Below are positions 3,242 through 55,185 of a stretch of DNA of 64,000 nucleotides, one piece after another (the stretch's first letter is position 1; the number at the start of each line of letters is the position of its first letter). The DNA comes from Candidatus Poribacteria bacterium (GTDB taxonomy: Bacteria; Poribacteria; WGA-4E; WGA-3G). A model generated the notes under the pieces. It was not told where the DNA came from, ran no database searches, and saw only the letters and a list, made by a program, of their open reading frames with translations. Where the stretch lies: assembly GCA_012270795.1 (NCBI GenBank), contig JAAXHO010000059.1:3375-67374 (forward strand), written 5' to 3'. The translations under genes and the position numbers were made by a program.

Positions 3242-3451
3242 ATAATGATACCAATTCAAATTAATATTGTCCCATTAAGGAATTTCACTTTTATCGCTGG
3301 TTGGAGATCTCTCTTCGGTAGGAGCGACCTCCCGGTCGCGACCCGGGTATGAATGCTATAGAGCATTCATACCGTTGATTTCTTGATTTGGAGGTCGCTC
3401 CTACCAGATCTCCACAACTAATGAGGCATTATCAATTAGAAATCGTATAAG
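3242..3451. mobile_element. family A MITE-like element whose palindrome core is itself interrupted by a family C fragment (nested insertion)
   Basis: The core half GGTAGGAGCGACCTCCCGGTCGCGACCC, then GGGTATGAATGCTATAGAGCATTCATACCGTTGATTTCTTGATTTGG, then AGGTCGCTCCTACC. Termini AATAATGATACCAATTC / TCAATTAGAAATCGTATAAG. Confidence 0.75.
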
Positions 3452-3481: not shown

Positions 3482-4738
3482 TTGATAAACTACGAAAAAG
3501 TAATCTCATTTTTAGAAAAAGTTGACCCGAATTCGGAGGAAGTTAAGGACTTTCTGCAATCTCATGATACCTACAAAAGAACAGGTAATTGGCAACCAGA
3601 ATATCAGATATTTACATCGGAATGGATCAGTCTTGACGGTGTTATGTTGATGATGACAGAGAATGAGTATGATGCTGACTATCGCGTCTATGTAAATGCT
3701 ACCACAGAACGAAGTTTAAGGGAATTGCTGCTTGCTTTTCCAAGACAAGTTGTTGGCTTGTTTCGTGTTACAGATAAATGGATTGAAGAGAAAATATTTA
3801 GCATTTTTGAAACTGAATCTGTACAGTTAGAATCCAAAGTGTATATTTGTGGTATCAAAAAAGGCAGTAAAGGTAAGTTAGAGCAACGAGTAGTCTCAAA
3901 AAGAAAAGACACGATCACTGCACATTACCGCAATTTAGCAACTATGAAAGGTAAGTTTGACAATTCGGCATTTATTGTTGAAGGTGAGTTGTTGGTTGAA
4001 CGTGCAGTAAAGGATGGACAACCTGTAAATTCAGTTCTTTATACCAGTAGTCTTGTTTCTACACTTGAAGGTAAAGAATTACTCAGTGAAATAATTCAGC
4101 AGAATATATCGTGTTATATGGTGAACGATGGTGTTATGGGTTCAATAACGACAATCCGTCCCGTGCCGTCTATTGTTGCTTCAGTACATCTCAGTTATCC
4201 CGATTTCTTATCTGAATCTGGTGAAATGAATTTCCATTTTAGCCCTCAATGCGTTTTACTAATTTCTGAAAATGTGAGTAATCCTGATAATCTCGGTATG
4301 ACCTTACGTACTGCGGATGCTGCAGGTGTTTCTGCAGTGCTATTATGTGGTGAAGGGGCGAGTCCATTACATAAGAATTGTGTTCGTGCATCACGTGGGG
4401 CGGTTGGTAGGTTACCGCTGTTTCATACAAGTAATATTGTTAAGACTATTGAAGAGTTGAAAGAATATGGATGGAATGTCATTGGTGCGACTGCTGGTGC
4501 AGACACGGATCTCTATAGTTTGAAAGCAAAATTGCCAATAGCAATTGTTGTTGGTAATGAACACGCTGGGTTATCAATTGAAATGCGTGAGCTGTGTACA
4601 GAATTGGTGCGAATTCCAATGGCTGCTGGGCAATCATCCCATAATGTAGGTGTTGCAGCGGGGGTGATGCTGTATGATTTTGTAAGACAAAAGTTAGCGA
4701 CTTCTGAAACAACCACAAGAGATGTCTGTGACAATTGA
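3482..4738 (+). CDS. SpoU/TrmH-family RNA 2'-O-methyltransferase with a long uncharacterised N-terminal domain
   Basis: The C-terminal 170 aa carry SpoU motifs (NVSNPDNLGMTLRTADAAGV; VVGNEHAGLS). The ORF starts at TTG. The N-terminal roughly 230 aa have no recognisable domain. Confidence 0.75.
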   Translation: MINYEKVISFLEKVDPNSEEVKDFLQSHDTYKRTGNWQPEYQIFTSEWISLDGVMLMMTENEYDADYRVYVNATTERSLRELLLAFPRQVVGLFRVTDKWIEEKIFSIFETESVQLESKVYICGIKKGSKGKLEQRVVSKRKDTITAHYRNLATMKGKFDNSAFIVEGELLVERAVKDGQPVNSVLYTSSLVSTLEGKELLSEIIQQNISCYMVNDGVMGSITTIRPVPSIVASVHLSYPDFLSESGEMNFHFSPQCVLLISENVSNPDNLGMTLRTADAAGVSAVLLCGEGASPLHKNCVRASRGAVGRLPLFHTSNIVKTIEELKEYGWNVIGATAGADTDLYSLKAKLPIAIVVGNEHAGLSIEMRELCTELVRIPMAAGQSSHNVGVAAGVMLYDFVRQKLATSETTTRDVCDN

Positions 4739-4757
4739 ACGACTCTGTAAAATATAC

Positions 4758-4888
4758 AGAGGCATTCAATTGTTGAAATGTACTCTTGTTGGAGGGGTTT
4801 CTAACCCCGATTTCTGCTGCTGTATATCTCCAATCGGGGTTAGAAACCCCTCCAACAACAATGAAACCCGACAATTGAATGCCTCTGG
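4758..4888. repeat. MITE-like hairpin element, family B: outer inverted repeat CAGAGGCATTCAATTGT flanking the inner 26 bp inverted repeat TTGTTGGAGGGGTTTCTAACCCCGAT
   Basis: Perfect 26 bp arms at 4787-4812 and 4834-4859 with a 21 nt loop. Outer arms at 4758-4774 and 4872-4888. Confidence 0.85.
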
Positions 4889-5017
4889 TAAAATATAACA
4901 TGAATTTGACAATTGTATCTGTTGGTGTTAAAATTATTAAGTTACAAAGAAATATATAGTTAGAAAGATGGTAAATGAATTAAAGGACTGTTTACACCAG
5001 AAAAGGAAACACTGCGT

Positions 5018-6567: not shown

Positions 6568-7686
6568 ATGGTGCAAAAACGAGATTACTATGAAATCTTA
6601 AATGTAAACCGAGATGCAGACGATAACGATATTAAAAAAGCTTATCGGAAATTAGCGATTAAATATCATCCGGACAAAAATCCTGATGATAAAGAAGCTG
6701 AAGAAAAGTTTAAAGAAGCAACCGAGGCGTATGATGTCCTCAAAACACCAGAGAAACGACAAAGGTACGATCAATATGGACATGCTGGTCTTGAAGGTGC
6801 AACTTCAAGCGGTTATGGTTATGGTATAGATTTTGACCAAATTATCAAAGAGGTATTCGGCGATGTCTTTGGTGGTTCTCGTAGAACGCGACACCAGAGA
6901 CCTCATCAGGGACGCAATCTACAGGCAAAAATTGAGATTTCGCTTGAGGATGCATACAATGGACGTGAAGTAACACTTGAAATCCCACGTATAGAATCCT
7001 GTCCTGAGTGTAGTGGTAGTGGTGCCGAAGCAGGGACAACAGTAGATACATGTCCTCAGTGCAATGGACGTGGACAAGTGACTCAATCTCAGGGCTTTTT
7101 CATGATGACTCGCACCTGTCCGCGTTGTCGGGGTGAAGGGCAGCTTATTTTAAACCCTTGCAGGAAATGCAATGGACAAGGCAGAATAAGAGTTGAACGA
7201 GAAATAAAAATGTCTGTTGACAAGGGTGTAGATAATGGATTTGAATATCGGATGCGTGGAGAAGGAGAGACAGGAACACTCGGTGGACCCCCTGGTGATC
7301 TCCTCGTAGGAGTATTCGTGAGACCTCACGACCAGTTTAAACGCGATGGCAACGATCTGATTACTACAACAAAAATATCGTTTGTTCAAGCTGCTCTTGG
7401 GTGTTCCATAGAAATTAACGGAATTGATGGTCGTCATGAGTTATCTATACCTGCAGGTACTCAGTTTGGGGATCTGCTCCGGATTCCAGGAAAAGGGATG
7501 CCGAGATATAGAAGTTCCAGTTTTGGTGATCTTATCGTTCAAGTTGGGATTGAAACACCACGGAATCTTAATGAAGAAGAACGGAATTTATTAGAACAAT
7601 TTTCAGGTCTACGAGGAGAATCTACTAAATCGGGGCATGGAAGTTTTTGGGACAAATTGTTTAACCCAAACGATCATGAAGAATAA
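6568..7686 (+). CDS. dnaJ: chaperone DnaJ
   Basis: J domain (HPDKN), G/F region, and four CxxCxGxG zinc-finger repeats. Confidence 0.95.
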
Positions 7687-16968: not shown

Positions 16969-19437
16969 TTATTCTTCTATTAGTTGCATGATTTCATCAG
17001 CACCGAAATTTAAAATAAATTCAGCATAATGGCTCGAAAACACATCTTTTAGGTAGGTCTTCAATTCAACATCTAATTTCGATCCGTTTTCGCTTTCCTG
17101 CACAACTTGATATTTATGTGCTTTTGTAATTGAGTACAAAAACAGTGTGTGGGCATACACAGAAGCAATATATTTCCGTTTACTGAATTCATTTTGTTCC
17201 TCGCTTGGATTTCTATTTTTTCTATGAAAATTTAGCCAAACTGTACTGTCCATGTTGATGTAAACGCGCTCTAATTTCTCACCGTTTACCATAGGATACA
17301 TTACAGTTGAGAAGTTCATCTCCTCTCCGATTGCTTCTTCAACTTGTTTCCAAGTTAATCCACCGTTTCTCTCAGGTCTTTCTTTTTCGTAAACGAGTGT
17401 TAGGCCGGGTAACCCTAAAGTTGGAATTTCTCTTTCTTCGGGTTTTGGTGCAGGCTCGGTAGGGGCTTTAGGTTCGCTAATTTTTACCCAAAATAGTTCT
17501 TTCAATTCTTCAGTAGCACCAGTCAAACTGACTTTAATTCTCACTTCGTCCCCGACATTAACAGTCTCTTTTGGGTTAAGATGAATCTTGATTGTCCCTT
17601 CTTGTGGACTGCTCTTGCTCGCATTGAATACCTCGTCAATTCTGTCAACTTGTCCAGGGGCATTTCCACCCTCTGTTTCATTTACTTTATAATCAAGAAT
17701 AGCAATCTTCAGTTCTCCAGGTTCTTCTATACGATCAAGGTAATTATTCTCCACATCCGTGTCAAATAGAATTGCTTTTTCTCCATCCTTGGGTATTGTT
17801 ACTGCCTCTTGTTCTGATTTTCCATTGGTCCTGCGTTTAAAGATTGCGGGAAATCGTTGTGGATTAAAAGGTTCAGGTTCCTTTTTCCTGCGTTTTTTCT
17901 TGGTTGAGCCATTGGCATTTTTATTCCAATTGCCTTTAGACTTCAAATCCAAATTTAATGTTTGGTCCAACAATTTCAGCAGGTCTTCGTTCCGAACGAT
18001 ATTTTTTGCAAAAGTTTTTATCAGTTCTTTTATATCTTCACTCTCAACAGTTATTGAATCTTTGCGTTGTCTGTGGATTTGTGCTAAACGTCCATTTCTG
18101 TCACCAAGTTTTTCTGCTAAATATTTTCGTAATGTCCTTGTTTCCTCACCATCTTTTAATCGGTCTCGAGATGCCATAAATAACTCTTTTCGGAAATCGT
18201 AGTTCATGTTTGTACAATCAACATGAATTAGAAGATGTTCCTTAAGTAGATTCAATTTGAGAGATCGGGTTATGAATTCCGATGTGTAATGACCATGTGT
18301 TTGCCCATTGACCGAAAATAGCACAGACATATTATTTTTGAAAAACTCTTTCCGAATTGTAGTTTTGGTCTCTTTGACGGATTTCTCATCAAGCTTTGTC
18401 TTAAAAACATAACATGTCACTTTCATTTTACCAAACAGTGCATCATCAAAATCTTCAGAAAAGCGTTTGTCAACGTATTTATAATCTTCTTGTTCTAATC
18501 TGCGTTTTAATCCATATAATCCTGTTCGTAGGGGACTCTTAGGATAACGTTTTTCATTTTCAATCGTATATACTGGTAATACAGGTTCAAATAGGTACTC
18601 ATTAATGCTCAGGTTTAAATCCCTTGAAATATCGGAGATTCCAGGTATATCGTAAGAGTATAGTTTTATGATTGACCCTGTAGTAAATTTCCTCTTGAAG
18701 AGACCTAAATCCAATTTAGCAATATCAAAAGCTGGAATTTTTTCGCCAATTTTCAAATATTCGTACCATGTATTCTTTTTTGTACTTTCCTCTGCTTCGC
18801 TTAGTGGATGCTCCCTGATAAGTGTAAAACCGAATTGTCCTGAATTGTCGAAACGTTTTGATGCGATTAATTGGTAACGTTTCTTGCCACAAAACACAAT
18901 AGCACCACTACCACCCATATTGTATTTTCCTTGCACAAAGTGAATTTCATTTTTATTTCCTCGCAATAACGACAAGAAGGTGTCTTCGAACTTTTCGGGA
19001 TGTTGTCCTTCACCATCATCATAAATAATAAGTGAGGTGTATTTTTTTGGACCATCGGCAAGAATTTGGATACTCTCTGCTTGTTCGTTTCTTGCTCCTG
19101 CCAAATCCCAATGTTTATGATTTGGAAAGAATTTCGTTCTGGCTTCTTCCATAGATTTAGGTGCTTGTGAGGATTTTGGATCAATGCCAACTTCCAGACA
19201 TTTTTTCATTAAAACAGCATCAATTGAGTTGGTGATTTTTTCAATCAGAGCGGCTATTGGAGCAGACTGTTGGTTTTCAATGACACCAAAATTATTGTCG
19301 TTGTCGCCAAGTGGATGCCAATTTTCAGGTTTGAAAATGTCCGGATAAGTATTTATGATTTTATCAAGTTCTTGCTCGGTTTGGGCAAAATATAGCTCGT
19401 TAAAAAGTTTTTTCATGTCCATTTGTAAGAAATCCAT
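16969..19437 (-). CDS. GHKL (Hsp90/MutL/MORC-like) ATPase-domain protein, 822 aa; candidate effector partner of the adjacent Ssp-like module
   Basis: GHKL N-box EKITNSIDA, G1 box DDGEG and G2 box GKYNMGGSGAI lie in the first 180 aa. A lysine/arginine-rich stretch (KKKRRKK) sits mid-protein. The gene begins 34 bp downstream of the PAPS-reductase gene on the same strand. Confidence 0.7.
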   Translation of the reverse strand: MDFLQMDMKKLFNELYFAQTEQELDKIINTYPDIFKPENWHPLGDNDNNFGVIENQQSAPIAALIEKITNSIDAVLMKKCLEVGIDPKSSQAPKSMEEARTKFFPNHKHWDLAGARNEQAESIQILADGPKKYTSLIIYDDGEGQHPEKFEDTFLSLLRGNKNEIHFVQGKYNMGGSGAIVFCGKKRYQLIASKRFDNSGQFGFTLIREHPLSEAEESTKKNTWYEYLKIGEKIPAFDIAKLDLGLFKRKFTTGSIIKLYSYDIPGISDISRDLNLSINEYLFEPVLPVYTIENEKRYPKSPLRTGLYGLKRRLEQEDYKYVDKRFSEDFDDALFGKMKVTCYVFKTKLDEKSVKETKTTIRKEFFKNNMSVLFSVNGQTHGHYTSEFITRSLKLNLLKEHLLIHVDCTNMNYDFRKELFMASRDRLKDGEETRTLRKYLAEKLGDRNGRLAQIHRQRKDSITVESEDIKELIKTFAKNIVRNEDLLKLLDQTLNLDLKSKGNWNKNANGSTKKKRRKKEPEPFNPQRFPAIFKRRTNGKSEQEAVTIPKDGEKAILFDTDVENNYLDRIEEPGELKIAILDYKVNETEGGNAPGQVDRIDEVFNASKSSPQEGTIKIHLNPKETVNVGDEVRIKVSLTGATEELKELFWVKISEPKAPTEPAPKPEEREIPTLGLPGLTLVYEKERPERNGGLTWKQVEEAIGEEMNFSTVMYPMVNGEKLERVYINMDSTVWLNFHRKNRNPSEEQNEFSKRKYIASVYAHTLFLYSITKAHKYQVVQESENGSKLDVELKTYLKDVFSSHYAEFILNFGADEIMQLIEE

Positions 19438-19471
19438 TCTATCAATTCAATCAAAATGTAATGTCAACATG

Positions 19472-20290
19472 TTACTTATGACAAATCAGACAAGGTTCCT
19501 CGTCATCCTCGTCATCGTGAACATCCGTAAGAATTTCTATCAGTCGACGATTCGGTTTTTCCTTTTTCTTGGATGCCTTCGCCTTCTCAGTCCTTGCCTT
19601 GATTTGTGCTATCCGTTCAGGTTCTGCCAATTCCTCTAAACTTTCCCCTTGACTCCACGTGAACCGTTCACCTGTCTCTGTGTTGAATTTCTCATATCCT
19701 TTTGCCAGTTCAAAGAGATCTGGATGTTGCTCTAAGAGGCCCACCCATTCAGATTTGCGTTGGAAAAAGCAGAAGTAGCAACCAGAACGCGTACGCCATT
19801 TGTAATAGTCAGGCAAACCGAGTCCGCTCTCCTCAAGGATACGGTAAACGTCCTCTTTGGTGATGCCGTCATCTTTGAATGGGTATTTAGGGAAAATGTT
19901 TTGAAGGGAGCTTATTTTAGGTGGTTTGTACCCGACACGATCCTCGTCTGCACGGATAGCGATGTAGTGATACACTTGGTCATCACCGACATATTCCTCA
20001 AAAGGTTTGATTTTGAGTTTGATGGTGCACCAACGAACTTGAGAGGATGGCAATAATCCACCGTGTAGTGTTAACCAGTGATCAAAGTCACGATCCATGT
20101 TGAGTCGTGCAATCGGTTTGCCGAGGAATGCTTCAAGCCGGTCCAAAAACTCGTATGTCTCTGGCAGTTCTTTACCGGTATCTGTGAAAAAGTATTCCAT
20201 TTCTGGTACTTTGTCGCGCATGTAGACAGCAAGTGCTGAGCTGTCTTTTCCGCCTGAAAGACCAAGTAGGTGTCGTATTTTTTGTGGCAT
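19472..20290 (-). CDS. PAPS reductase-family protein (DndC/SspD/BrxP-like ATP pyrophosphatase)
   Basis: PP-loop motif LSGGKDSS and the C-terminal CYFC cysteine pair. An AGGAG RBS lies 7 nt upstream of ATG 20290. The longest ORF extends to 20335. Confidence 0.8.
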   Translation of the reverse strand: MPQKIRHLLGLSGGKDSSALAVYMRDKVPEMEYFFTDTGKELPETYEFLDRLEAFLGKPIARLNMDRDFDHWLTLHGGLLPSSQVRWCTIKLKIKPFEEYVGDDQVYHYIAIRADEDRVGYKPPKISSLQNIFPKYPFKDDGITKEDVYRILEESGLGLPDYYKWRTRSGCYFCFFQRKSEWVGLLEQHPDLFELAKGYEKFNTETGERFTWSQGESLEELAEPERIAQIKARTEKAKASKKKEKPNRRLIEILTDVHDDEDDEEPCLICHK

Positions 20291-20325
20291 GTTGTCTCCT
20301 TTCAAATAAATTTTTATATCACAGG

Positions 20326-20754
20326 ACTTACGCATTTTCTCTTAAAGTCCCACTGATAAGGGGATTTAGAGGGTTATAGTAAAATCTATAATTAATGGGA
20401 CACTTCTGTAGCGCAAACTTTAGTTTGCGTCTCATCGGCACAAACTAAAGTTTGTGCTACAATCTCTGTTGTCCGTTATGTTTCCAAAATAGGTTTATCA
20501 AAGTGTCCTAATAATTTCAAAGTTCACTATAAATTAACCTAATTGCCACCTATGTAGCACAAACTTCAGTTTGTGCATCTGTGGAACGCAAACTAAAGTT
20601 TACGCTACAAAATATTGGCTAATTATCAGCATTTTTCACGAAAGACGGTGTTTCCATGTCTAAAACTTATAGGTAGCAACTTGGGTTATAAATAACTGAA
20701 ATAACGCCTTTTTAACCCCCTACCCCTTTATCATGGGGGAATGCGTAAGTCATG
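20326..20754. mobile_element. MITE-like element, family E: terminal inverted repeats GGACTTACGCATT / AATGCGTAAGTC with four internal 22-25 bp palindromic units (GCAAACTTTAGTTTGC type)
   Basis: Terminal inverted repeats at 20326-20341 and 20739-20754. Subterminal CTGATAAGGGGATTTAG(A/G)GGGTTA motifs. A partial copy lies at 1728-1790. Units are at about 20398-20419, 20427-20451, 20566-20588 and 20594-20620. Confidence 0.7.
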
Positions 20755-20760
20755 AAAATT

Positions 20761-23700
20761 TCACATCCTATTTTCAGATTGCTCCATCAATTTTTTTGAA
20801 ATTCGCGCCAAAATAGCAAGACGAAATTCGGAGTTTTTGTCTACATCAAGCTCATCAAAAATCTTTGTAATTGCTCGTTCTATTTTATCGGCATGTTCCT
20901 CATCAGTTAAATTAACAACTCGTTCCTGTTCGTGCTCGTTTGGTGTTGTAATGCCTATCCGAATTGTCTCACCAGATGATTTGGTGTGTTGCAGTTTTTC
21001 AAAAGAAACTGCTTCAAAATGTTGAAATTTTCTTGCAAGTTGCGAAAGGTTGATCTCAAATTGTGCTTTATCTGTGTCTATCCACGATGCAGGCGGTTTT
21101 TTGGCAAGAAAAGTGCCGATTGATTCAATCCAACCTGTGAAATCATGCCCTTCACTATAAAGATGGATTAAAAATCCTTTAAGTTGTGTCTCAATTGCCA
21201 CCTCTAACAAGGGTTCTGCTCTTGCGGCTAATTCTGCGCGGAGTTCTTCCGCTGTGGACTCCAACGTGAACGCATCTGCAAGCATCCGTTCAAGTGAGTT
21301 TAGCAGTCCTTCGTAAGCACTGCCGAGTTCAGACAATGCGTCTTGCAGTGTGTTAAAAAAGTCTGAAAGCATTTTTGAGTCTGTTGTTTCTGGACCAAAA
21401 CTTGGGAATCCGAATGCTTCGGGCAACTGTTTAAAAAGGAGTTCGTCAGGTTCACTTGCATTTTGAACAACTTTACGTAGATTTTTTGCTGCGTCACTCA
21501 ACTCCTGTGTTGTTAAAGTATATTTCGGTAGTTGCGCGATAAAACGCATCAATGGGGTGACAATTGTCAACAGGTCCGGGTTTTCAGTTTCCACAGGTTG
21601 ATTGAGCATCTTCAGAAATCGTGCAAATAGATCGGCACGGATTCCCGCCATTCGAAATCGCTTCAGTTCAAATTGTTCTGGTGCTTTAAGCAGACGTTCG
21701 AAAACTGGCGTTGACAGGTCAGCAATAAAGGAACCGTTCTCATAGAGTGCGATTTCTGTTCTGTAATGGAGGATCGCAGCACACAACAGAATAGGGAGTG
21801 GACCGCCACGGACGCCGAGTGGTGGTTGCATGAGAAATTTATAGAGATTTTCAACAGGCTGTCGCGTATCTTCACACTTGCTAAGAAACGTTTCAATTGC
21901 ATTCCAGGTGTGTTCTATTCCGTTTTTATCCTCTGCTTTTGGTGGATGGAACCCCCAAACACCTGAGGCATGACGGTGTATCCCCGTATCTAATAAGAGG
22001 GATCGGTAGATACTCATTTCAGGTGGAAACTTTTTGATACCGAGATTCTCTTTGTCCCCATTCTCAAGCATGGCTTGAATTAATTTTCTGCGTGCGTTTG
22101 TCGCAGCACCAGATATTTTGCGACGATTGATAAGTTCATTTCGTATGAGAGGCGTTTTGTGGAAAACCTTATCACATATTTTTGACAAGTATGCGTTTCG
22201 GGCACGTTGCGAGTTAATATTTACCGTTTCACCGTTGCAATACCATGAACAAGCATCTCCATTGTTTCCACTAAAAATTGTTGTTAACTGGTGAGATATA
22301 TTTCGCTCTGCTGCAATCTGATGCATTGAGAGTTCACGTCTTGCGACCGCATCACCTTCAAGTTCAAGCGTGTTGTCCGCAATCCACTGTAAGTGGACGA
22401 GTTGCATAACTGCATCGTCCAGAAAACCGGTGGAATGCGGAATCGCAATTAATACCTTTTTGCGATTTTCAGTATCAATGTTACTTGCCTTTTTAACGAG
22501 CTGCTTAACCTCATATTCGTTTGCAGGCAAAGTATAGAGGATAAGTCCGTCTGCATCATCAAGTGGGGCTGTGAGGGCTACATCAAAGTTTTCTAAATCA
22601 GTGTAGCGAATAGTGAAGTAACGTAGGGTACCGGTTTGGTATAAATGTCGCTTTGCAACAAGCGGGGGGGGCACGTTACGTGATAGATCTATAACGAGTG
22701 ATACTTTTGTGCCAACGTGCGCTGCTGCCTCACGGAGTTTTGCCGCAATGTCAATGTCGCTGCCTTCCCACAGCGCGTAAGTTTTGTTATATGTACGGTA
22801 GATAACAATTGAACGGTTTTTCAGTGTCCCAAGTGCATCTTCAAATTCGGTGGCAAATCCTGCTGTGTTATCGTCAAGTGCGTAACGTAGCAATTGCTCT
22901 GAGGCTTTCAGGTTAGGAATTGGTTCGCTAACAATGCTGAGTAGCCCGATGGTTTTTATCAGTTTAACCGTCATTTCGGAAGGGTCTGGTAGTTGCGTTA
23001 TTGCGGTTTCAATCTCTATCCATTTTTTGCTGTTGCTTGAAATATAGAGTTTATTGCCCTGCGTGGTACCAAGGTAGTCGTATAGGTCAGCGAGCGAAAA
23101 CATCGGTAGACTGTCACCGTCATAATGTTGGTTTGCAAGGAAGTCTTGTAACCCGTTCGGTGCACTTGAGCTGAGAAAAGCGAAGAGGGAACGTTCATTT
23201 TGTCCGAATCGGCGGAAAAGCGGGCCGATGAGGAGTGCTACTGTCGGATGCAGCGGCAGACAATCTTTCAAGAGTTGGATAAATTCATGATTGTCAAGTT
23301 GACGCGGTTTAAGTCCTAATTCGGTAGCGGTGTTAAGGTTTTCCCTGCAAACAATCTCTGCAGGTTTTTCAAGTGCAGCACCGACTAAACGGAGTACCTG
23401 TTCGGTAGGTTCTGCAAATGCCACATCTTCAAATCTTCCTTGCACCTTTGCCCACTCTTCGCGTTGTGATTGCGCGGTACGCTGTGCATACACCTCAAAA
23501 GCTTGGTGGAGGATAGTCATGAGAAATAGGGGCGTTTGCTTGCTTCTGTCTGCTAATTCCGCAAGGTTCTGTAGGATAAACATATCCCCTTGTGTTGGGT
23601 GTTGCGTAGCGTATTCCAGAAACTTACCGAGTTCGTCAATCACGAGCAGCAGTCCCGCACCTCCCGAATCACAAATTTCGTGCGTTGCTAATTCAAACAC

Positions 23701-24246
23701 ACGCGCAACTTCAGAGGCAGGTGGTAAGGTGTCATTTTCTGCTTTTTCCAACAAATTATTGAGTTCTTGAAGGAGAGAAATAGAGAGTTGTGTACTGTTG
23801 GCAGCGGTGAGTCCGCGTTCTAAACCGCGCAAAAGTGCAAGCGAAAGAGGGGCGCGTTCGCCAGAGATAAGCACGGGACAGAATCCAGAGGGTGTGTGCT
23901 TTTCGTTACCGTTTGTGCTGATGAATCGCTCATATAACGAAGCATCTCCACGTTTGAGTATTTCTAAGGCGTGTTGTGTTGTCGGGGCATTAGGTTTGCC
24001 AAGCAATTTTGCAGCGAAAAGTGCGAACGCTGATTTTCCTGACCCATAGGGGCCGGTGAGTGTCCATGCTTTAGATGTTGCTTCATTTTCAAACGTTGAA
24101 ATAACACGCGATAACATTTCCCGCGCGGTGGCGGTTAAAATGTATCCATCAAGCACGTTTTCTGTGTAAAAGTCGCGTTCAAGATGTACTGAACGCCGAA
24201 AACGTCCTTGGACATGGAAAATATCTGAAAGCGGAATGTCATCCAT
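20761..24246 (-). CDS. large P-loop ATPase (1161 aa), SspC/BrxC(PglY)-like
   Basis: Walker A TLTGPYGSGKSAF at about residue 60 and Walker B LLLVIDELGKF at about residue 200, followed by a long alpha-helical C-terminal region. Its ATG overlaps the stop codon of the upstream DUF4007 gene (ATGGATGA). Confidence 0.7.
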   Translation of the reverse strand: MDDIPLSDIFHVQGRFRRSVHLERDFYTENVLDGYILTATAREMLSRVISTFENEATSKAWTLTGPYGSGKSAFALFAAKLLGKPNAPTTQHALEILKRGDASLYERFISTNGNEKHTPSGFCPVLISGERAPLSLALLRGLERGLTAANSTQLSISLLQELNNLLEKAENDTLPPASEVARVFELATHEICDSGGAGLLLVIDELGKFLEYATQHPTQGDMFILQNLAELADRSKQTPLFLMTILHQAFEVYAQRTAQSQREEWAKVQGRFEDVAFAEPTEQVLRLVGAALEKPAEIVCRENLNTATELGLKPRQLDNHEFIQLLKDCLPLHPTVALLIGPLFRRFGQNERSLFAFLSSSAPNGLQDFLANQHYDGDSLPMFSLADLYDYLGTTQGNKLYISSNSKKWIEIETAITQLPDPSEMTVKLIKTIGLLSIVSEPIPNLKASEQLLRYALDDNTAGFATEFEDALGTLKNRSIVIYRTYNKTYALWEGSDIDIAAKLREAAAHVGTKVSLVIDLSRNVPPPLVAKRHLYQTGTLRYFTIRYTDLENFDVALTAPLDDADGLILYTLPANEYEVKQLVKKASNIDTENRKKVLIAIPHSTGFLDDAVMQLVHLQWIADNTLELEGDAVARRELSMHQIAAERNISHQLTTIFSGNNGDACSWYCNGETVNINSQRARNAYLSKICDKVFHKTPLIRNELINRRKISGAATNARRKLIQAMLENGDKENLGIKKFPPEMSIYRSLLLDTGIHRHASGVWGFHPPKAEDKNGIEHTWNAIETFLSKCEDTRQPVENLYKFLMQPPLGVRGGPLPILLCAAILHYRTEIALYENGSFIADLSTPVFERLLKAPEQFELKRFRMAGIRADLFARFLKMLNQPVETENPDLLTIVTPLMRFIAQLPKYTLTTQELSDAAKNLRKVVQNASEPDELLFKQLPEAFGFPSFGPETTDSKMLSDFFNTLQDALSELGSAYEGLLNSLERMLADAFTLESTAEELRAELAARAEPLLEVAIETQLKGFLIHLYSEGHDFTGWIESIGTFLAKKPPASWIDTDKAQFEINLSQLARKFQHFEAVSFEKLQHTKSSGETIRIGITTPNEHEQERVVNLTDEEHADKIERAITKIFDELDVDKNSEFRLAILARISKKLMEQSENRM

Positions 24247-25246
24247 AATATCTCTCTAAAGGTAGCATCGGATTATAATCTCTATAGCGATAGACCTGCT
24301 TTAAGTCAGCGGTTTCGTCGTACTGCAACGCACCATCGGTGAGTTGTTCAAGCTTTTCAAGATATATCGTCATCGTGTCTTCGTCTAATTTAAAAATGCG
24401 TCCGGGACTTAATGGGGCGTACATCAGTTCTGTAAAAGGTAGTGCGTCTTTTTCGGAGAAACGCGCATCCCAAAAGGCGATGAGTGTTGCTGTCACAACC
24501 TCAATTGGCAACGTCTCTTTTTCGCCGCGCTGGAATTCATACATGCCGCTATCTGGCAATTCGGTGATGAGGTTAAGTTCAACGAGTGGACAGTCAAACG
24601 TATCTTCCACTACGTCAGCGTTATGGCGTGATTGGCAGTAGGTTCGGATAAAGCAATTGACATCTCGCTGCATCGTATTCTCAGAAAAAGTACGCATAGA
24701 TTTTTTCTGCTGTTTTGCCCATTCGTACAATTCTTCCGTGAATGCTGTACGAACAAATTGATTTTTCTTTAAGATATTAAATGCCCAATACCATGCTGTT
24801 GCCTGATTGATGTTCGTTGCGATCTGCCAATGGATTAACCACAAAGTGGCAGGATCATCCAAGTATGGGTCAAATCCGTTTTTGTCGTTAAAAATGGCGT
24901 TACCGAGTGTAGTTGGAACGAATCGCCCCTGTTGATAACCATCTACCTTGATGAGTCTTGCTACACGACACCAATGCCGAATAGAATCCACCATATTTTT
25001 TCCGACACCTAAAATTACAGACGCGTACTCTGAGGAAAAGATCGTTGAATCATCTGTTACAGCATCAACCCCCTTTTTTAGCCATGTATACCGAAACGGA
25101 AAGGTTTGGTGACCAGAAAAGGACGGATTGATTATATACGGAGTAGCTGTATGTTCTGCAAGTAGTAGGTTTTCCATACAAATTATTATACCATACGCGC
25201 AACAAAAATGGCAATACATCTTAACAAAAAGTGCAGATGAATTCAA
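24239..25246 (-). CDS. DUF4007-like protein (SspB-like)
   Basis: Near-N-terminal motif FSGHQTFPFRYTWLKKG is characteristic of DUF4007 (recalled from memory). The true start is probably the internal Met at about 25177 (MENLLLAEH...). There is an 8 bp overlap with the ATPase gene. Confidence 0.55.
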   Translation of the reverse strand: MNSSALFVKMYCHFCCAYGIIICMENLLLAEHTATPYIINPSFSGHQTFPFRYTWLKKGVDAVTDDSTIFSSEYASVILGVGKNMVDSIRHWCRVARLIKVDGYQQGRFVPTTLGNAIFNDKNGFDPYLDDPATLWLIHWQIATNINQATAWYWAFNILKKNQFVRTAFTEELYEWAKQQKKSMRTFSENTMQRDVNCFIRTYCQSRHNADVVEDTFDCPLVELNLITELPDSGMYEFQRGEKETLPIEVVTATLIAFWDARFSEKDALPFTELMYAPLSPGRIFKLDEDTMTIYLEKLEQLTDGALQYDETADLKQVYRYRDYNPMLPLERYYG

Positions 25247-26704: not shown

Positions 26705-26882
26705 AGAATCTTATACCATTTCTAAAATTTAATTTCTCATTAGCTGCGAAGATTTGGTAGGAGCGACCTCCCGGTCGCGACCGGGAGGTCGCTCCTACCG
26801 AAGAGAGGCACCCCAACCAGCAATAACAGTGAAATTCCTTAATGAGACAATATTTTTTAGAATTGGTATTACTTTTTACTTC
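26705..26882. mobile_element. MITE-like element, family A (terminal ...ATACCATTTCTAA... / ...TTAGAATTGGTATTAC), with a 44 bp perfect palindrome core GGTAGGAGCGACCTCCCGGTCGCGACCGGGAGGTCGCTCCTACC
   Basis: The core at 26756-26799 is a perfect palindrome. Related copies are listed below. Confidence 0.8.
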
Positions 26883-29476: not shown

Positions 29477-32155
29477 CTATTTATTCTGTTTTGAAAGAAG
29501 TTTTGCGACTTCGTCCCTGCCAGTTTTTACTTTTTTCTCGTCTATTTTCAACTTTAACAGTCCCACAACAAACTCTGTTATTCCCCAGTCGATTTTGGTA
29601 ACGCTCAAGGGTGTCATACCATCATTTTTTTTGAGGCTAATATCTGCCCCTTTCTCAAGTAGTAGTTTTGCTGTTTCAGTACGTCCAAGGAATGCTGCAG
29701 CATGCAACGCTGTAGAACCGTCCCTATGTCGGTTATTGATTTTTGCCCCTTTTTCAAGTAGCAATTTCGCTGCTTCTGTCTGCCCATTTAGTGCTGCCCA
29801 ACCTAAAGGATCTATTCCAAATTGTGGGTCAAGTGCTTCAATATCTGAACCGTTTTCTAAAGCAGTCTTGATAGCAGGCAGATCACCATCCGCAGCTGCT
29901 TTCCACAAATTTTGGGATTGTGAAGGATTATTCTTCTCATAAGCAGCGATTAGTTTTGCAATTTCTGCTCTGCCCGTTTCCACTTCTTTTCTATCAACTT
30001 CAATTTGGATAACATTGAGAATAGCTTGTGTAATTCCCCAGTCAAGTGTTGTATTATCCATAGCAGATCCACCTGAGTGATTACGCACATGAACATCTAC
30101 ACCATGTTTCAAAAGCAATTTCGCCGCTTCCGTACGTCCTAAAAATGCTGCAGCATGTAAGGTTGTGTTACCATCCCTATTTACACCATTAACATCTGCC
30201 CCTTTCTTCAATAAGAATTCCATGATGTCTGTATGTCCCATCAACGAAGCAATAAATAGCAAGGGATCTCCCGACTGTGGATTCCGCGAATTCACATCCA
30301 ACCCATCAGCGATTGCCTTTTCTACTTTCTTTAAATCACCGGTAAAAGCGGCTTCCCAAACCTCGTTTGCAGCACCTTGTGGTTCTGTAGAATTTGTGTT
30401 TCTGAGTAGCTCAGCAACTTCCTTTCTACCTGCTTCTACCTCCTCCTGTTTCAAATCTATATCAAACATGCTTGTCATGAACCTAAGCATACCCCACGGC
30501 AGATATAAACCGCTTGCGGGTGTAGCACCACCATGATTTTTGGCATTAACATCTGCCCCGTTATCAAGAAGAAGTTCAGTAAGTTCAACACGACCTAAAG
30601 TAACAGCAACATGTAAGGGAGTTCCCCCATCCTCTTGTCGGACATTGACATCCGCACCGAGTTTGATAAGCAATTCTGCAGCTTCTGTGTGTCCCATCAT
30701 CGTTGCCCAGGTTAACGGAGATAAATGTGTATCGTCTGAAAGTGCATCAATCTCTGCGCCTTCGGCAATGTAACGCTTGATACCATCAAGGTCACCGAGA
30801 CGGGCAGCCCCCCACAAATTGTCTTCCGGTAATTCAATAAATTGTTTCATAAACTTTCCATCAAAACCATCAGGTCCCATCACGATTGGCGGGTGTGGTC
30901 GTCTTCTCCATTCAGGCATACCATCACTTATCTCTTCTAAAATCTTACTCTTACGAGTTCTGATAAATTCCCGCACTTCATCTAACTTCTCTTCAAAAGC
31001 AATCGTTTCGCCTCTACCCCATCCCTCATTTTCTTTAATGGTTCGTTGTGAGGGTATCATATGCGGTTGAATCATCGTAGAAATTCTATCTAATTCAGCA
31101 AAGAGCTTAACTTCGTTCCAATGGTTTTCAAGTATATCTATCATCGTCTTTGCATACCGTTCTTTACCAGCATCAAGTTGATAAAGTCTATAAGCAATTA
31201 AGCCTTGTGTCTTTACCGAAATTGGCGCGTTAGTTTTTCTCCCCATATTCTTCATATCAAAGTTTGAGAACAACGCATCTGCACCCCAAGGCAAGAAGTG
31301 AAACTTGTCTGTTTCAGGATTTAGATAGACAAAGAAATTATTGTTGTTCCCAGAATAACCATCCCAGAAACCGAGTAATCCTTCTATTACCCAAAATCGG
31401 TAGAAACTATCTAAATCAACAAACTGACCGATGGTCTTTTCACTTACTTCATCAGCCGCTAACACATTAATTAACCCTTTTATTTTTTCTCTCCCGTGTT
31501 TATCTTTACCTCTCTTGTGTTCAAAACTGTTCTCCCAATCCTTATAGAAATCTACCACTGAACCTTCATATAAGGTGCCGTCGTCATCACCAAAAGCACG
31601 CTTGAGTATAGGTTTTCGCATAGTCTCCACATGCGAATATATACCTAAGTTCTTACCATTCACTGTAACCTTCGCATAACCACAACGTGGTGCAGGAGAA
31701 CCGATTGCGTTGAACAACGCATATCCCAAAAACTGACTGACATGCGTTACATCTTGTTGATTGTTATTCAGTGTTAGGTTGGTCAATCCTTCTATTCCGC
31801 CTTTTTTGTCTACATGGTTCAACTTGATCTTGAGGGATGGACGCGATATACTCTGTGAACCGATGAAACCTTTCTTGCGGATTCCGACTTTCGGGAACTC
31901 TACCCCGTCAATACTTACACTTGCATCAACGTAGGTATACGGATGCTCTGGTGGTGCAAACTGACGGGACTCGTTCAGTACATCCATAAAACCCCGTGAC
32001 TGAATCCGTATCTTGTTCCAATCCCGTTGTGAAACAGTTATCTGTATATCTAAAACCCGGTCGCTTGGGAATATATCGTCCAAAGTCAATTCCTTTGCAT
32101 CAATGTTTCCGACACAAAGTATCGTTGCAAAACCTACTATCCATTTGATCATCAT
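29477..32155 (-). CDS. secreted CotH-kinase-like protein with C-terminal ankyrin repeats (892 aa)
   Basis: Signal peptide, then a CotH domain (first roughly 400 aa), then at least 9 ankyrin repeats (TPLHxAxxxGxxExxxLLLxxGADVN). Confidence 0.8.
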   Translation of the reverse strand: MMIKWIVGFATILCVGNIDAKELTLDDIFPSDRVLDIQITVSQRDWNKIRIQSRGFMDVLNESRQFAPPEHPYTYVDASVSIDGVEFPKVGIRKKGFIGSQSISRPSLKIKLNHVDKKGGIEGLTNLTLNNNQQDVTHVSQFLGYALFNAIGSPAPRCGYAKVTVNGKNLGIYSHVETMRKPILKRAFGDDDGTLYEGSVVDFYKDWENSFEHKRGKDKHGREKIKGLINVLAADEVSEKTIGQFVDLDSFYRFWVIEGLLGFWDGYSGNNNNFFVYLNPETDKFHFLPWGADALFSNFDMKNMGRKTNAPISVKTQGLIAYRLYQLDAGKERYAKTMIDILENHWNEVKLFAELDRISTMIQPHMIPSQRTIKENEGWGRGETIAFEEKLDEVREFIRTRKSKILEEISDGMPEWRRRPHPPIVMGPDGFDGKFMKQFIELPEDNLWGAARLGDLDGIKRYIAEGAEIDALSDDTHLSPLTWATMMGHTEAAELLIKLGADVNVRQEDGGTPLHVAVTLGRVELTELLLDNGADVNAKNHGGATPASGLYLPWGMLRFMTSMFDIDLKQEEVEAGRKEVAELLRNTNSTEPQGAANEVWEAAFTGDLKKVEKAIADGLDVNSRNPQSGDPLLFIASLMGHTDIMEFLLKKGADVNGVNRDGNTTLHAAAFLGRTEAAKLLLKHGVDVHVRNHSGGSAMDNTTLDWGITQAILNVIQIEVDRKEVETGRAEIAKLIAAYEKNNPSQSQNLWKAAADGDLPAIKTALENGSDIEALDPQFGIDPLGWAALNGQTEAAKLLLEKGAKINNRHRDGSTALHAAAFLGRTETAKLLLEKGADISLKKNDGMTPLSVTKIDWGITEFVVGLLKLKIDEKKVKTGRDEVAKLLSKQNK

Positions 32156-40064: not shown

Positions 40065-40118
40065 TTCCTAATACTGCACTTTGGCGGGTTCACTACCCGC
40101 CTATTTTTTTAGTATGTT

Positions 40119-40278
40119 ATACCAATTCTAAAAAATATTGTCTCATTAAGGAATTCCACTGTTATTGCTGGTTGGGATACCTCTCTTCGGTAGGAGCGAC
40201 CTCCCGGTCGCGACCGGGAGGTCGCTCCTACCAGATCTCCGCAGCTAATGAGAAATTATATATTAGAAATGGTATTAT
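40119..40278. mobile_element. MITE-like element, family A copy (intact 44 bp palindrome core at 40189-40232)
   Basis: Terminal ATACCAATTCTAAAAAATATTG / TTAGAAATGGTATTAT. Its core is identical to the 26756-26799 copy. Confidence 0.8.
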
Positions 40279-40305: not shown

Positions 40306-41592
40306 ATGGAAGACCTGTTAGCAGCTCGTTCTCAGATGGCGATGTCACTCGCTTTTCATATTATCTTCGCATCCGTTGGCATAGCCATGCCCCTACTGAT
40401 GGTAATTGCAGAAGGACTATGGCTAAAAACAAAGGATGATACATATCTTACTCTTGCCAAACGTTGGTCTAAAGACACAGCGATCATGTTTGCTGTCGGT
40501 GCTGTCTCTGGGACTGTCTTATCTTTTGAACTTGGGTTGCTGTGGCCCGGTTTCATGGCTTACGCCGGTCCAATCATCGGAATGCCGTTTTCATTAGAAG
40601 GATTAGCATTTTTCATAGAAGCAATCTTCCTCGGTATATACCTTTATGGATGGGAACGTGTACCAAAGAAGGTTCATTTGCTCTCTGGAGTCATGGTACT
40701 CCTTGGTGGGATGATGTCGGGTATCTTTGTCGTGACTGCAAATGCATGGATGAACACACCCACAGGATTTTCAATCGTTGATGGTCAAGTTACAAACATT
40801 GACCCTATCGCTGCAATGCTAAACCCATCTTCCTTTAGTCAAGCACTACACATGACCCTCGCTGCTTTCATCGCTGTAGGATTTGGGGCTGCGGGGATAC
40901 ATGCATACTGTCTCAGACGTGACCCAAATAATACTTTACATCGTAAAGCCTTTGCAATTGCACTGAGTGTGGGAGGTGTTTTTGCACTATTACAACCGAT
41001 TTCTGGTGACATCAGCGCAAAACGCGTCGCAGAATGGCAACCGATCAAACTCGCTGCCATGGAAGGACAATGGGAAACAGAAAAAGGTGCCCCATTGCGA
41101 ATTGGCGGCATACCGGACGAAGATGCTGAAGTAACACGATACGCCTTAGAAATACCGAAAGCTCTCAGTTTTCTTGCTAAATTCGATTTCAATGCTGAGA
41201 TACAAGGGCTCAAAGAGGTAAAACCAGAGGATCGCCCCCCAGTCACAATCGTTCATATCGCTTTTCAGATTATGGTCGCGTGTGGTATAGTCATGATTGT
41301 TGCTGCTATTATTGGCGGATGGTTGGCATGGAAAAAGAAAGGTATACCTACGAATAGATGGTATCTCAAGTTAATTACATGCTGCACCCCCCTTGGATTT
41401 ATCGCAATAGAAGCAGGGTGGACGGTAACAGAAGTTGGAAGACAACCGTGGGTTATCTACGGCTTTATGCGTACATCAGAGGCAGTGACACCCATGCCCC
41501 ATCTTGTTATTCCGTTTATCGGCTTTACCGTGCTATATATATTCCTTTCAATTATTGTTGTTATCTTGATGCGACGTCAAATATTCCAGTGA
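40306..41592 (+). CDS. cydA: cytochrome bd-type quinol oxidase subunit I (CydA-like), with no cydB detected downstream
   Basis: N-terminal CydA motifs (SLAFHIIFASVGIAMPLL, WxxxxGEQPW-like GRQPWVIYG). Followed by 1 kb of repeats. Confidence 0.8.
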   Translation: MEDLLAARSQMAMSLAFHIIFASVGIAMPLLMVIAEGLWLKTKDDTYLTLAKRWSKDTAIMFAVGAVSGTVLSFELGLLWPGFMAYAGPIIGMPFSLEGLAFFIEAIFLGIYLYGWERVPKKVHLLSGVMVLLGGMMSGIFVVTANAWMNTPTGFSIVDGQVTNIDPIAAMLNPSSFSQALHMTLAAFIAVGFGAAGIHAYCLRRDPNNTLHRKAFAIALSVGGVFALLQPISGDISAKRVAEWQPIKLAAMEGQWETEKGAPLRIGGIPDEDAEVTRYALEIPKALSFLAKFDFNAEIQGLKEVKPEDRPPVTIVHIAFQIMVACGIVMIVAAIIGGWLAWKKKGIPTNRWYLKLITCCTPLGFIAIEAGWTVTEVGRQPWVIYGFMRTSEAVTPMPHLVIPFIGFTVLYIFLSIIVVILMRRQIFQ

Positions 41593-41794
41593 ATCAATCA
41601 GTGGCATTCCCCGGGCGTAAAATTAGGGGAAATAACATAAATTTTGGATGTATTTCAGCACCAGCGGTGCGACAGGTATATTACAACACACCTGTTATAT
41701 ACCTGTCACCCCGCTGGGGTTCAGGTCAATGTTGGACAATGTTTCTATACACATTCCGCCCCTCTGGGGCTATTGCTGTGTCAACACCTAACTT

Positions 41795-42060
41795 GTAGGT
41801 CGGGTAGAGCGCAGCGAAACCCATAAATCAACGGTATGAATGCTCTATAGCATTCCCCGGGTGTCAATTTAGTGATTACCCAACCCCATTTTCCTATTGT
41901 TGGAGGGGTTTCTAACCCCGATAGCAGAGAGCCACGGTATAAAATCGGGGTTAGAAACCCCTCCAACAATAACGAATATTCTTAAATTGACACTTATGGG
42001 TAGAGCGCAGCGAAACCCGACATTTTGTAGGGGCGACCTCGGGTCGTTCCTACAGAAGAA
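41795..42060. repeat. cluster of nested repeat fragments: family D palindrome (GTAGGTCGGGTAGAGCGCAGCGAAACCC) twice, a family C fragment, and a family B hairpin at 41897-41969
   Basis: Family B arms at 41897-41922 and 41944-41969. D motifs at about 41795-41826 and 41998-42025. Confidence 0.75.
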
Positions 42061-42072
42061 ACCCTAAACGAA

Positions 42073-42282
42073 TTACCGACCATCTTTGAGTGTTCCCCAG
42101 GTTGTTATACGTTTGCTGGTCGGAGTGATAACACCACGTAACCGATACGTAGTAAGGATGCCGCGCGTGCCTGAGAGGTCTATGTCCTCAAGTCTGTAAA
42201 AATACGCGACATCGGGTTTAGCGGTTTTGTCAATGAATTGATATGTGTTTCGTTCACCCGTAGTACCAGCACCTTGGATCAA
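42073..42282 (-). pseudogene. C-terminal remnant of a T9SS C-terminal sorting-domain (CTD) protein
   Basis: The C-terminal peptide ...DVAYFYRLEDIDLSGTRGILTTYRLRG resembles the T9SS C-terminal sorting-domain signature. The ORF is cut off upstream by a family B hairpin. Confidence 0.3.
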
Positions 42283-42308
42283 CTTGGTATTGATGCTTTG
42301 GAAGTTCT

Positions 42309-42438
42309 TTGTTGGAGGGGTTTCTAACCCCGATTTCTGCTGCTGTATATCTCAAATCGGGGTTGGAAACCCCTCCAACAAAGAATCGGGGTTAGAAACC
42401 CTCCAACAATGATGCTTTGAGACAATTGAATGCCTCTG
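42309..42438. mobile_element. family B MITE-like element with one forward and two reverse-complement copies of the 26 bp arm, plus the outer inverted repeat ACAATTGAATGCCTCTG
   Basis: Arms at 42309-42334, 42356-42381 and a degenerate copy at 42385-42409. The loop TTCTGCTGCTGTATATCTCAA is nearly identical to the loop at 4813-4833. Confidence 0.85.
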
Positions 42439-42612
42439 TTAAATTATGGTTGTGTAAAGTTTGGGTTTCTTGTCTGAACCAGGATTACCAGATTTTCAAA
42501 TCAACGGTATGAATGCCTTAGCTTTACACACCCGATTTGGTGTTTAATTTGCAATTGGGCAAAAGTTATAGTATAATATAAGCACGGTTTAGTTTATGAA
42601 AGGTTTTATTAT

Positions 42613-42688
<76 letters not shown>

Positions 42689-42695
42689 TTCGGAT

Positions 42696-42769
<74 letters not shown>

Positions 42770-42779
42770 TATTGCTGTT

Positions 42780-42852
42780 GGTGGATGTAGCTCAGGGGTA
42801 GAGTGCCTGACTGTGGATCAGGAGGTCGTGGGTTCAAATCCCATCATCCACC
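42780..42852 (+). tRNA. tRNA-His (anticodon GTG) with G-1
   Basis: Manual fold: extra 5' G pairing with discriminator C, anticodon loop CTGTGGA. Confidence 0.8.
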
Positions 42853-42862
42853 TTTTTAGGAT

Positions 42863-42935
42863 GCGTCCGTAGTTCAATGGATAGAGCAATAGCCTTCGGA
42901 GCTATAAGTTGGGGGTTCGAATCCCTCCGGACGCT
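42863..42935 (+). tRNA. tRNA-Arg (anticodon TCG)
   Basis: Manual fold: acceptor GCGTCCG/CGGACGC, anticodon arm ATAGC-CTTCGGA-GCTAT. Confidence 0.7.
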
Positions 42936-42936
42936 T

Positions 42937-43009
42937 GCGCTGTTAGCTCAATTGGCAGAGCATCTGACTCTTAATCAGAGGGTTGAAGGTTCGATTCCTT
43001 CACGGCGCA
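42937..43009 (+). tRNA. tRNA-Lys (anticodon CTT)
   Basis: Manual fold: acceptor GCGCTGT/ACGGCGC, anticodon loop CTCTTAA. Confidence 0.8.
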
Positions 43010-43079
43010 TCGGTTCTTATGTTACAGAACGGATGCGGAATTTGCCTTCTTTTTATACGGCATCTGTGTTGAGGAACAG

Positions 43080-43165
43080 GGGCGGGTGCTGGAATTTGGT
43101 AGACAGGATAGACTTAGGATCTATTGGGGTTATGCCTCGTGAGGGTTCAAGTCCCTCCTCGCCCA
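43080..43165 (+). tRNA. tRNA-Leu (anticodon TAG), type II with long variable arm
   Basis: Manual fold: acceptor GGGCGGG/CTCGCCC with one G-U pair, anticodon loop CTTAGGA, 16 nt variable arm, T-loop TTCAAGT. Confidence 0.7.
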
Positions 43166-55151: not shown

Positions 55152-55185
55152 TGCGAGTGAATTTTAAAGTGAATCTTATACCATT

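Follow-up and report, generated by a model that had tools for sequence, protein, structure and literature searches.

Bacterial MITEs, among them the Correia elements of Neisseria, Nezha and RUP, are intergenic, multi-copy elements that can alter the ends of genes. Insertion sequences of the IS1397 and ISPpu9/10 type, which target REP sequences, are autonomous and generate short duplications or none. The small dispersed repeats (SDRs) of Nostoc and its relatives, which Elhai et al. are said to have described in Genome Research in 2008, are reportedly very small hairpin-containing modules nested in one another and in MITEs. REPs, BIMEs and REPINs are short extragenic palindromes present in high copy number (PMC3116915, PMC3337134, PMC2817692, PMC3333891). 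They form inverted doublets with a fixed short spacer, which give rise to a long hairpin, they occur as singlets and in arrays as well (PMC3333891, PMC3337134), and they carry a compensated stem beside a conserved tail. In E. coli, RAYT cleaves the CTAC tag of the REP at C|TAC (PMC3333891). Here we compare with these systems a family of hairpins, designated B, which is present in four copies in a 64-kb window, the whole stretch of DNA analysed in this study.

Hairpin copies in the window and their setting

The window covers a housekeeping region of a chromosome from Candidatus Poribacteria, the homologs of its PcrB and trigger-factor genes being 64-87% identical and belonging to Poribacteria, and contigs identical to it occur in sponge-type metagenome assemblies. 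A cyanobacterial origin, to which the G+C content and the style of the motifs had pointed, was rejected in view of these homologs. With up to three mismatches allowed, the 26-mer TTGTTGGAGGGGTTTCTAACCCCGAT is found in the window as eight arms that make up four inverted pairs, compared to 0.00 expected from 100 shuffles, and the long inverted-repeat hairpins that a preliminary description had placed at four loci are thereby borne out. Copy 1 occupies 4786-4858, with arms at 4786-4811 (forward strand) and 4833-4858 (reverse strand) around a loop at 4812-4832; its earlier span of 4787-4859 was off by one position, the hairpin itself being present. In this copy and in copy 2, at 41897-41969 (arms 41897-41922 and 41944-41969), both arms are free of mismatches. 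Copy 3, at 42309-42381 (arms 42309-42334 and 42356-42381), has one mismatch in the right arm, and copy 4, at 63604-63704, has one mismatch in the left of its arms (63604-63629 and 63679-63704) and a loop of 49 nt. The extra degenerate arm noticed beside copy 3, at 42385-42409 on the reverse strand, is real, carries a 1-nt deletion and appears to be the right arm of that copy duplicated in tandem.

Copies 1 and 3 have loops (4812-4832 and 42335-42355) that are the same at 20 of 21 positions, so their near-identity stands, while the recent transposition that had been read from it does not follow. The same loop recurs at 20/21, in reverse orientation, at position 4059 of locus L009 (OZ242381), which derives from a Poribacteria species with a PcrB only 75% identical, and is therefore a long-lived subfamily marker and not necessarily the trace of a recent event.

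Other classes of repeats were considered for these hairpins as well. A CRISPR array was ruled out, as the arms are inverted, the loops measure 21 nt and the copies are dispersed, and so was an integron attC site, for which the order of the GTT/AAC ends does not fit. Rfam 15 gave no match at the gathering score, only generic long-hairpin matches below threshold.

None of the four hairpins lies within a gene. Copy 1 is placed between the genes for a SpoU-like methylase and PcrB, 19 nt past a stop codon; copies 2 and 3 are located between the gene for cytochrome bd subunit I and a cluster of six tRNA genes, and copy 4 upstream of an amino-acid permease gene. The repeat-rich block at 41600-42519, which holds copies 2 and 3, is a synteny breakpoint. 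In the relatives, DUF58/VWA genes are found upstream of the tRNA-tig region instead, and in the window (40306-42519) no subunit II gene follows the cytochrome bd subunit I gene. On the reverse strand at 42040-42300, an open frame of about 90 aa that resembles the C-terminal fragment of a protein ends beside hairpin copy 3. The tRNA genes (Pro-TGG, Arg-TCT, His-GTG, Arg-TCG, Lys-CTT and Leu-TAG; 42612-43165) are situated directly 5' of the trigger factor gene, and a promoter-like site is present near the cluster at 42548-42577.

The window also contains other repeat families, at 3248-3450, 26706-26873, 40116-40278 and 55172-55322, each of about 150-200 nt and with 73-89% identity to Poribacteria loci; within the first three of these, GTAG-type palindromes TGTAGGGGCGACC are accompanied by an inverted partner. 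Among the genes of the window, those on the reverse strand at 16969-25246 encode a DUF4007 protein, a BrxC/PglY-like ATPase of 1161 aa (a faint Pfam match), a PAPS-reductase-family protein and a pair of large proteins that gave no Pfam match, a cluster that presumably resembles the Ssp/Dnd-type phosphorothioate defence systems. A further protein of 892 aa (29477-32155, reverse strand) combines a CotH domain with many ankyrin repeats, and we take it to be of the eukaryote-like type typical of sponge symbionts.

The arm family in Poribacteria

The 23-nt core of the arm was found at at least 47 further loci, all of them in Poribacteria MAGs among the matches listed (one genome per species), so that B is a dispersed repeat family and the 26-mer is not restricted to the four sites of the window. 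No match was obtained in viral contigs, in JGI metagenome contigs (two scans) or in plasmids. About 100 arms were counted in 0.54 Mb of non-redundant Poribacteria DNA, a sample that is biased because the 47 loci were selected for containing an arm. The arms are predominantly extragenic, with 95 of 103 located outside ORFs of at least 150 aa.

Each arm is composed of a conserved 5' tail, TTGTTGGAG, followed by a 6-bp/3-nt mini-hairpin (GGGGTT-TCT-AACCCC), to which a lone arm is predicted to fold, and then by GAT. For 39 of 92 arms (~42%) a partner arm is present within about 60 nt on the GAT side, compared to none on the TTG side, which served as a control. In most of the 27 pairs listed, the two arms start 47-49 nt apart, corresponding to a loop of 21-22 nt, and the loop sequences fall into several subfamilies. 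Arms occur also as singlets. At 775-930 of locus L026, six 27-nt units form a tandem array, each unit being a variant of the B arm, TTGTTGGAGTGGTTTTCAACCACGAT, with a compensated mini-stem.

Two levels of pairing emerged when 20 doublets were aligned. The long hairpin is 89.2% paired, and arm position 5 covaries within it, as U-A in 12, G-C in six and A-U in one of the doublets. Both mini-hairpins are 97.9% paired in the same alignment, with compensations from G-C to C-G and from G-C to U-A. Changed mini-stems (GGGCTT..AAGCCC or GTGGTT..AACCAC) keep their own hairpin and lose the pairing with the other arm; where the long hairpin and the mini-hairpin are in conflict, it is the mini-hairpin that is retained. 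Some of these covarying cells are inherited within one subfamily and so represent fewer events than cells, yet several independent variants are still seen. In addition, sequence conservation is much higher in the arms than in the loops and the spacers. In all these respects the arm resembles a REP module, and the inverted doublet a REPIN-like palindrome.

Composite elements

More than half of the arms (58/103) lie within 140 nt of the end of an outer repeat pair, which we refer to as a shell, while the remaining 45 have no shell nearby. The preliminary description had proposed that some copies lie within, or are combined with, outer inverted repeats, and this holds: CAGAGGCATTCAATTGT surrounds copy 1, TAACCTAAGTTGCCACCTA surrounds copy 4, and copy 3 is accompanied only by the right-hand CAGAGGCATTCAATTGT. 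Folded as single strands, the composites of the window reach -35 to -48 kcal/mol (z = -9 to -14). Three types of shell, C, E and D, were distinguished, each with an architecture that recurs in different genomes.

The C-shell has the architecture C>-29-B>-47-<B-38-<C, in which C stands for CAGAGGCATTCAATTGTC, a length of 131 nt and TIRs of 17-18 nt; this arrangement is repeated in L009 and, in part, in L022, L034 and L046. In the window it is represented by copy 1, as a composite of 131 nt at 4757-4887 that consists of a TIR, a 12-nt spacer, a B arm, the 21-nt loop, the second B arm, another 12-nt spacer and a TIR, and that folds at -48.2 kcal/mol (z = -14.4). Its left TIR, CAGAGGCATTCAATTGT, is found at 4757-4773 on the forward strand, and its right TIR, inverted, at 4871-4887. 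A 10-bp direct repeat, GTAAAATATA, is present on the forward strand at 4747-4756 and again at 4888-4897 (10/10), as a putative target-site duplication of the C-shell. A second C-shell element, at 301-423 of L046, is flanked by GACGATCATA at 10/10 and the one of L034 at 8/10, the 10-bp duplication thus being represented by only two to three cases. Copy 3 is a rearranged C-type copy with the additional arm: a lone C-shell TIR, without a left partner, lies to its right at 42423-42439 on the reverse strand, and a 10-nt direct repeat, TGATGCTTTG, at 42291-42300 (forward strand) and again at 42410-42419, flanks the copy together with the third arm.

Next to copy 1, the SpoU-like methylase gene (3482-4738) encodes a C-terminal tail of 12 aa that is absent from its orthologs and is specified by repeat-derived DNA (window 4700-4747). 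A remnant of an older C-shell right end, ACAATTGAACGACTCTG, is situated at 4731-4747 on the forward strand and overlaps the stop codon of this gene.

The E-shell, to which window copy 2 belongs, is arranged as E>-35-B>-47/48-<B-35-<E, with CATAGGCGTCAATTTAAGG as E, and in its canonical form it measures 129-141 nt with TIRs of 19 nt. The composite of copy 2 spans 41823-41997; its left TIR is split by a 35-nt module, designated H (41825-41859), and its right TIR is at 41980-41997. It is bordered by a 21-nt direct repeat, GGGTAGAGCGCAGCGAAACCC, at 41802-41822 on the forward strand and again at 41998-42018 (21/21), a target duplication inside a GTAG-type REP. When the insert and one copy of the repeat are removed, the rebuilt site reads GTAGGTCGGGTAGAGCGCAGCGAAACCCGAC, a sequence that is intact in L037 (31/31) and present three times in L044 with two to three mismatches each; judged by their sequence, these are paralogous empty sites of window copy 2.

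Elements with CATAGGCGTCAATTTAAGG ends and flanking repeats were identified in the window and in L003, L019, L022, L026, L031, L036, L044, L045, L046 and L055. The repeats measure 20 bp, or 22 bp if the flanking G and C are included, and among the 13 elements tabulated they are identical at 20/20 in five and at 19/20 in four, each copy having a duplication of its own sequence. The targets are often GTAG-type REP hairpins, in which case the duplicated 20 nt are exactly the stretch between GTAG and CTAC. In L022, two E-shell elements share three copies of the repeat (X-E-X-E-X). Longer E-shell elements hold remnants of the right B arm beside their right end and have their centres filled by other small repeats, which indicates that the B doublet is the ancestral core of the E-shell and was disrupted later.

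The H module, of 35-36 nt and of the form AAATCAACGGTATGAATGC-N6-GCATTCCCCG, is not confined to the left end of the E-shell of the window (41825-41859). It is also present inside a B loop in L034 (about 7175-7205) and in L003 at 3944, 4216 and 4911, while at 15579-17476 of L051 it belongs to 134-nt tandem arrays occupying a 3.9-kb block missing from the window. At 1201-1275 and 4059-4131, L009 has chimeric copies in which the B doublet is bordered by a C-shell end on one side and by the E-shell spacer, gaagatatatcc, on the opposite side, which suggests recombination through the shared core.

The D-shell, with TAACCTAAGTTGCCACCTA as D, contains a single arm (D>-23-B>-104-<D), has a size of 145-160 nt and TIRs of 19 nt. 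Window copy 4 has the architecture D>-32-B>-75-<B-30-<D and forms a composite of 156 nt at 63572-63727, with the TIR TAACCTAAGTTGCCACCTA at 63572-63590 and its inverted partner, with one mismatch, at 63709-63727. Flanking repeats of 3 bp were found in 11 of 14 D-shell copies, the copy of the window being ambiguous, and the internal sequences that D-shell elements carry are unrelated.

Mobility, related loci and candidate transposases

The preliminary description had regarded the hairpins as MITEs. The composites do look like non-autonomous mobile elements, as they are small and non-coding, bounded by TIRs and flanked by target-site duplications (10 bp for C, 20 bp for E and 3 bp for D), but the unit bounded by the duplications is the outer shell and not the hairpin with 26-bp arms.

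Insertion differences between relatives are consistent with mobility. The spacer between the SpoU-like and PcrB genes is 279 nt long in the window and 115-121 nt in relatives with 83-87% PcrB identity, which lack the C-shell element and in which further changes obscure its borders. In a closer relative (94% PcrB identity) the upstream region is different and contains a truncated C-arm together with the start of a B arm. In L061, an insertion with a degenerate B arm is present between tig and clpP; it is absent from the window, L059 and L062, and is not clean. No clean orthologous pair of filled and empty sites was thus obtained for a B-containing element at the SpoU-PcrB, tig-upstream and tig-clpP sites, which are rearranged or blurred. 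Indels between close loci were also considered as empty sites and set aside, as other repeats are involved in them.

A cognate transposase of the IS200/IS605 TnpA type, which had been suggested for the hairpins, did not emerge. No transposase is encoded in the 64-kb window, an IS200/IS605-type TnpA or a RAYT included, and about 0.58 Mb of sampled Poribacteria DNA gave nothing significant for Y1/RAYT by tblastn with two probe sequences and one motif scan, searches that are weak because RAYT is usually single-copy. Weak RAYT/TnpA matches in L004 proved to be ordinary ORFs, and recurrent ORFs near the arms encode sulfatases, GFO/IDH oxidoreductases, enolase-family, laminin-G and WD40 proteins instead of transposases. 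Likewise, no autonomous element, in the sense of a matching TIR pair that encloses a transposase ORF, was detected in the window or in the sampled Poribacteria DNA. An IS630-family insertion is present at 5325-6232 of L054 (an HTH_Tnp_IS630 ORF with a TA duplication), in one of three contigs that are 99.8% identical, and is absent from L052. It represents a recent transposition unrelated to the B family, and it was rejected as a parent element, its ends being unrelated.

Discussion

The B family is confined to Poribacteria among the matches listed, its composites have fixed architectures and shell-specific flanking duplications, its arms are biased towards extragenic DNA, and compensatory changes are observed at two levels. 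The presence of one core in three shells with different TIRs is odd, and none of the explanations considered below is proven. We regard it as probable, with considerable reservation, that the B arm is a REP-like unit and that its doublet is the core shared by at least three families of MITE-like non-autonomous elements, spread in trans via transposases encoded elsewhere. According to this model, two arms placed head to head with a spacer of 21-22 nt would give a REPIN-like palindrome, and this palindrome would be the common core of small non-coding elements that differ in their TIRs and in their duplications, of 10 bp for C, 20 bp for E, often in GTAG-type REP hairpins, and 3 bp for D. The four copies of the window would then be old composite insertions into intergenic DNA. 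Transposases encoded elsewhere would have moved such composites in trans, presumably by cut-or-copy and paste, and the hairpin may have been retained as a folded single-stranded structure required in cis by the transposition machinery.

A different possibility, to which we attach clearly less weight and which we consider unlikely, is that B doublets are true REPINs, that a single-copy RAYT (Y1 HUH) located elsewhere recognises the mini-hairpin and its 5' tail on single-stranded DNA and copies the doublets, and that the shells are secondary, the REPINs having landed in the centres of other palindromic elements. Much about the arm is consistent with this: it is REP-like, its covariation retains the mini-hairpin even at the expense of the long hairpin, the inverted doublets have a fixed spacing, singlets and a tandem arm array occur as in BIMEs, the arms are extragenic, and no target duplication is evident immediately around the hairpin. 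GTAG-type REPs of similar build (a tag, then ..GGTT-loop-AACC..) are moreover present in the same genomes. However, the tag of B is GTTG and not GTAG or CGTC, the tblastn probes and the motif scan, weak as they are, found no Y1/RAYT in the sampled DNA, and more than half of the arms are in shells with TIRs and duplications of their own. The E-shell data, in addition, point to a B core that is ancestral to the shell and not inserted into it.

The conservation of the arm could also be ascribed to the host, with the hairpin acting as a bidirectional weak terminator, an RNase III or RNA-stability site or a protein-binding site, and its mobility being incidental. The 26-nt identity of arms across genomes with only 75% PcrB identity is compatible with such a function, and so are the position of copy 1, 19 nt past a stop codon, and the terminator-like appearance of the mini-hairpin with GATTT on the inward-reading strand of several arms. 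The mini-hairpin together with GATTTCTGCT passes a lenient terminator scan, and no T-run follows the long hairpin. For the roles put forward in the preliminary description, as terminators, RNA stability elements or small-RNA sources, the sequence offers only lenient terminator-like matches to the mini-hairpin. These terminator matches are nevertheless lenient, with a 6-bp stem and a broken T-run, the positions of the copies are not conserved between relatives, copies lie in pseudogene or rearrangement junk and in arrays, and the covariation favours a folded strand over a fixed double-stranded binding site, for which reasons we consider a host function improbable to a marked degree. Least likely of all, and hardly credible in our view, is that B is a passive filler, which was captured once by one element, then passed between the shells through recombination or gene conversion, and does not contribute to transposition. 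The chimeric copies of L009 (1201 and 4059), with their C-end and E-spacer, and the unrelated internal sequences of the D-shell would agree with it; a passenger of this kind would be expected to decay, whereas the conservation of the arms far exceeds that of the loops and spacers, and compensatory changes maintain both levels of pairing.

The junctions of the E-shell in REP targets lie one base from the position cut by the RAYT of E. coli, a proximity that, by analogy, may serve as a lead and is not taken as a result. We tentatively suggest, as a doubtful but possible scenario, that the E-shell integrates by an undescribed route with strand cuts 20 bp apart, which in REP targets would fall exactly at the GTAG|N20|CTAC borders, and with the B hairpin as a required cis element. 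If so, either a ruler-type integrase or insertion at breaks made by a REP-specific nuclease could be involved, and such a cis requirement would explain both the sharing of the hairpin by several shells and its conservation across species.

In Poribacteria, sponge symbionts that have not been cultured, the intergenic DNA consists of nested palindromic modules, which alter the ends of genes, as in the 12-aa tail of the methylase, occupy synteny breakpoints and form kilobase-long blocks of repeats. Repeats of this kind influence the assembly of MAGs and can be used as strain markers. The strongly conserved core common to three elements with different ends offers, moreover, a way to study how mobile DNAs of very small size are recognised. 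If confirmed, the 20-bp duplications that flank E-shell elements at REP hairpins would represent a new mode of insertion.

In regard to known systems, we found no account in the open literature of small repeats, REPINs, MITEs or RAYTs from Poribacteria. B shares with REPs, BIMEs and REPINs the short extragenic palindromes in high copy number (PMC3116915, PMC3337134, PMC2817692, PMC3333891), the inverted doublets with a fixed short spacer that form a long hairpin, next to singlets and arrays (PMC3333891, PMC3337134), and the compensated stem beside a conserved tail. It differs from REPs in the tail at the foot of the hairpin, which is GTTG instead of GTAG or CGTC, GTAG being found only in other co-resident repeat families. 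It differs from REPINs in that no RAYT was found in the window or, with weak probes, in a sample of about 0.58 Mb, and in that the doublet lies mostly within larger elements with their own TIRs and target duplications, neither of which appears in the cited descriptions of REPINs. The composites, on the other hand, are similar to bacterial MITEs (reviewed in PMC3184786, PMC10969869) in being non-coding, 130-160 nt long, bounded by TIRs of 17-19 nt and flanked by target duplications; they differ in having three shells, with different TIRs and duplication lengths, around one internal palindrome, and no parent insertion sequence was found in the sample.

The H module, compared by description only, is similar to the SDRs of Nostoc in its nesting, while the phylum and the sequences are different. 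A 20-bp duplication such as the one found with the E-shell is not known to us from any MITE or IS family. With the REP-targeting insertion sequences IS1397 and ISPpu9/10 (PMC1525189), the E-shell shares the preference for REP hairpins, but it has no coding sequence, and the 20 nt that it duplicates are the entire hairpin between GTAG and CTAC. Both kinds of element, REP/REPIN and MITE, are thus known, while there seems to be no earlier description of the B family or of one of its carrier elements. What appears to be new is the B family itself, the presence of one core in three shells that differ in duplication length, and the duplication of 20 bp by the E-shell at REP hairpins.
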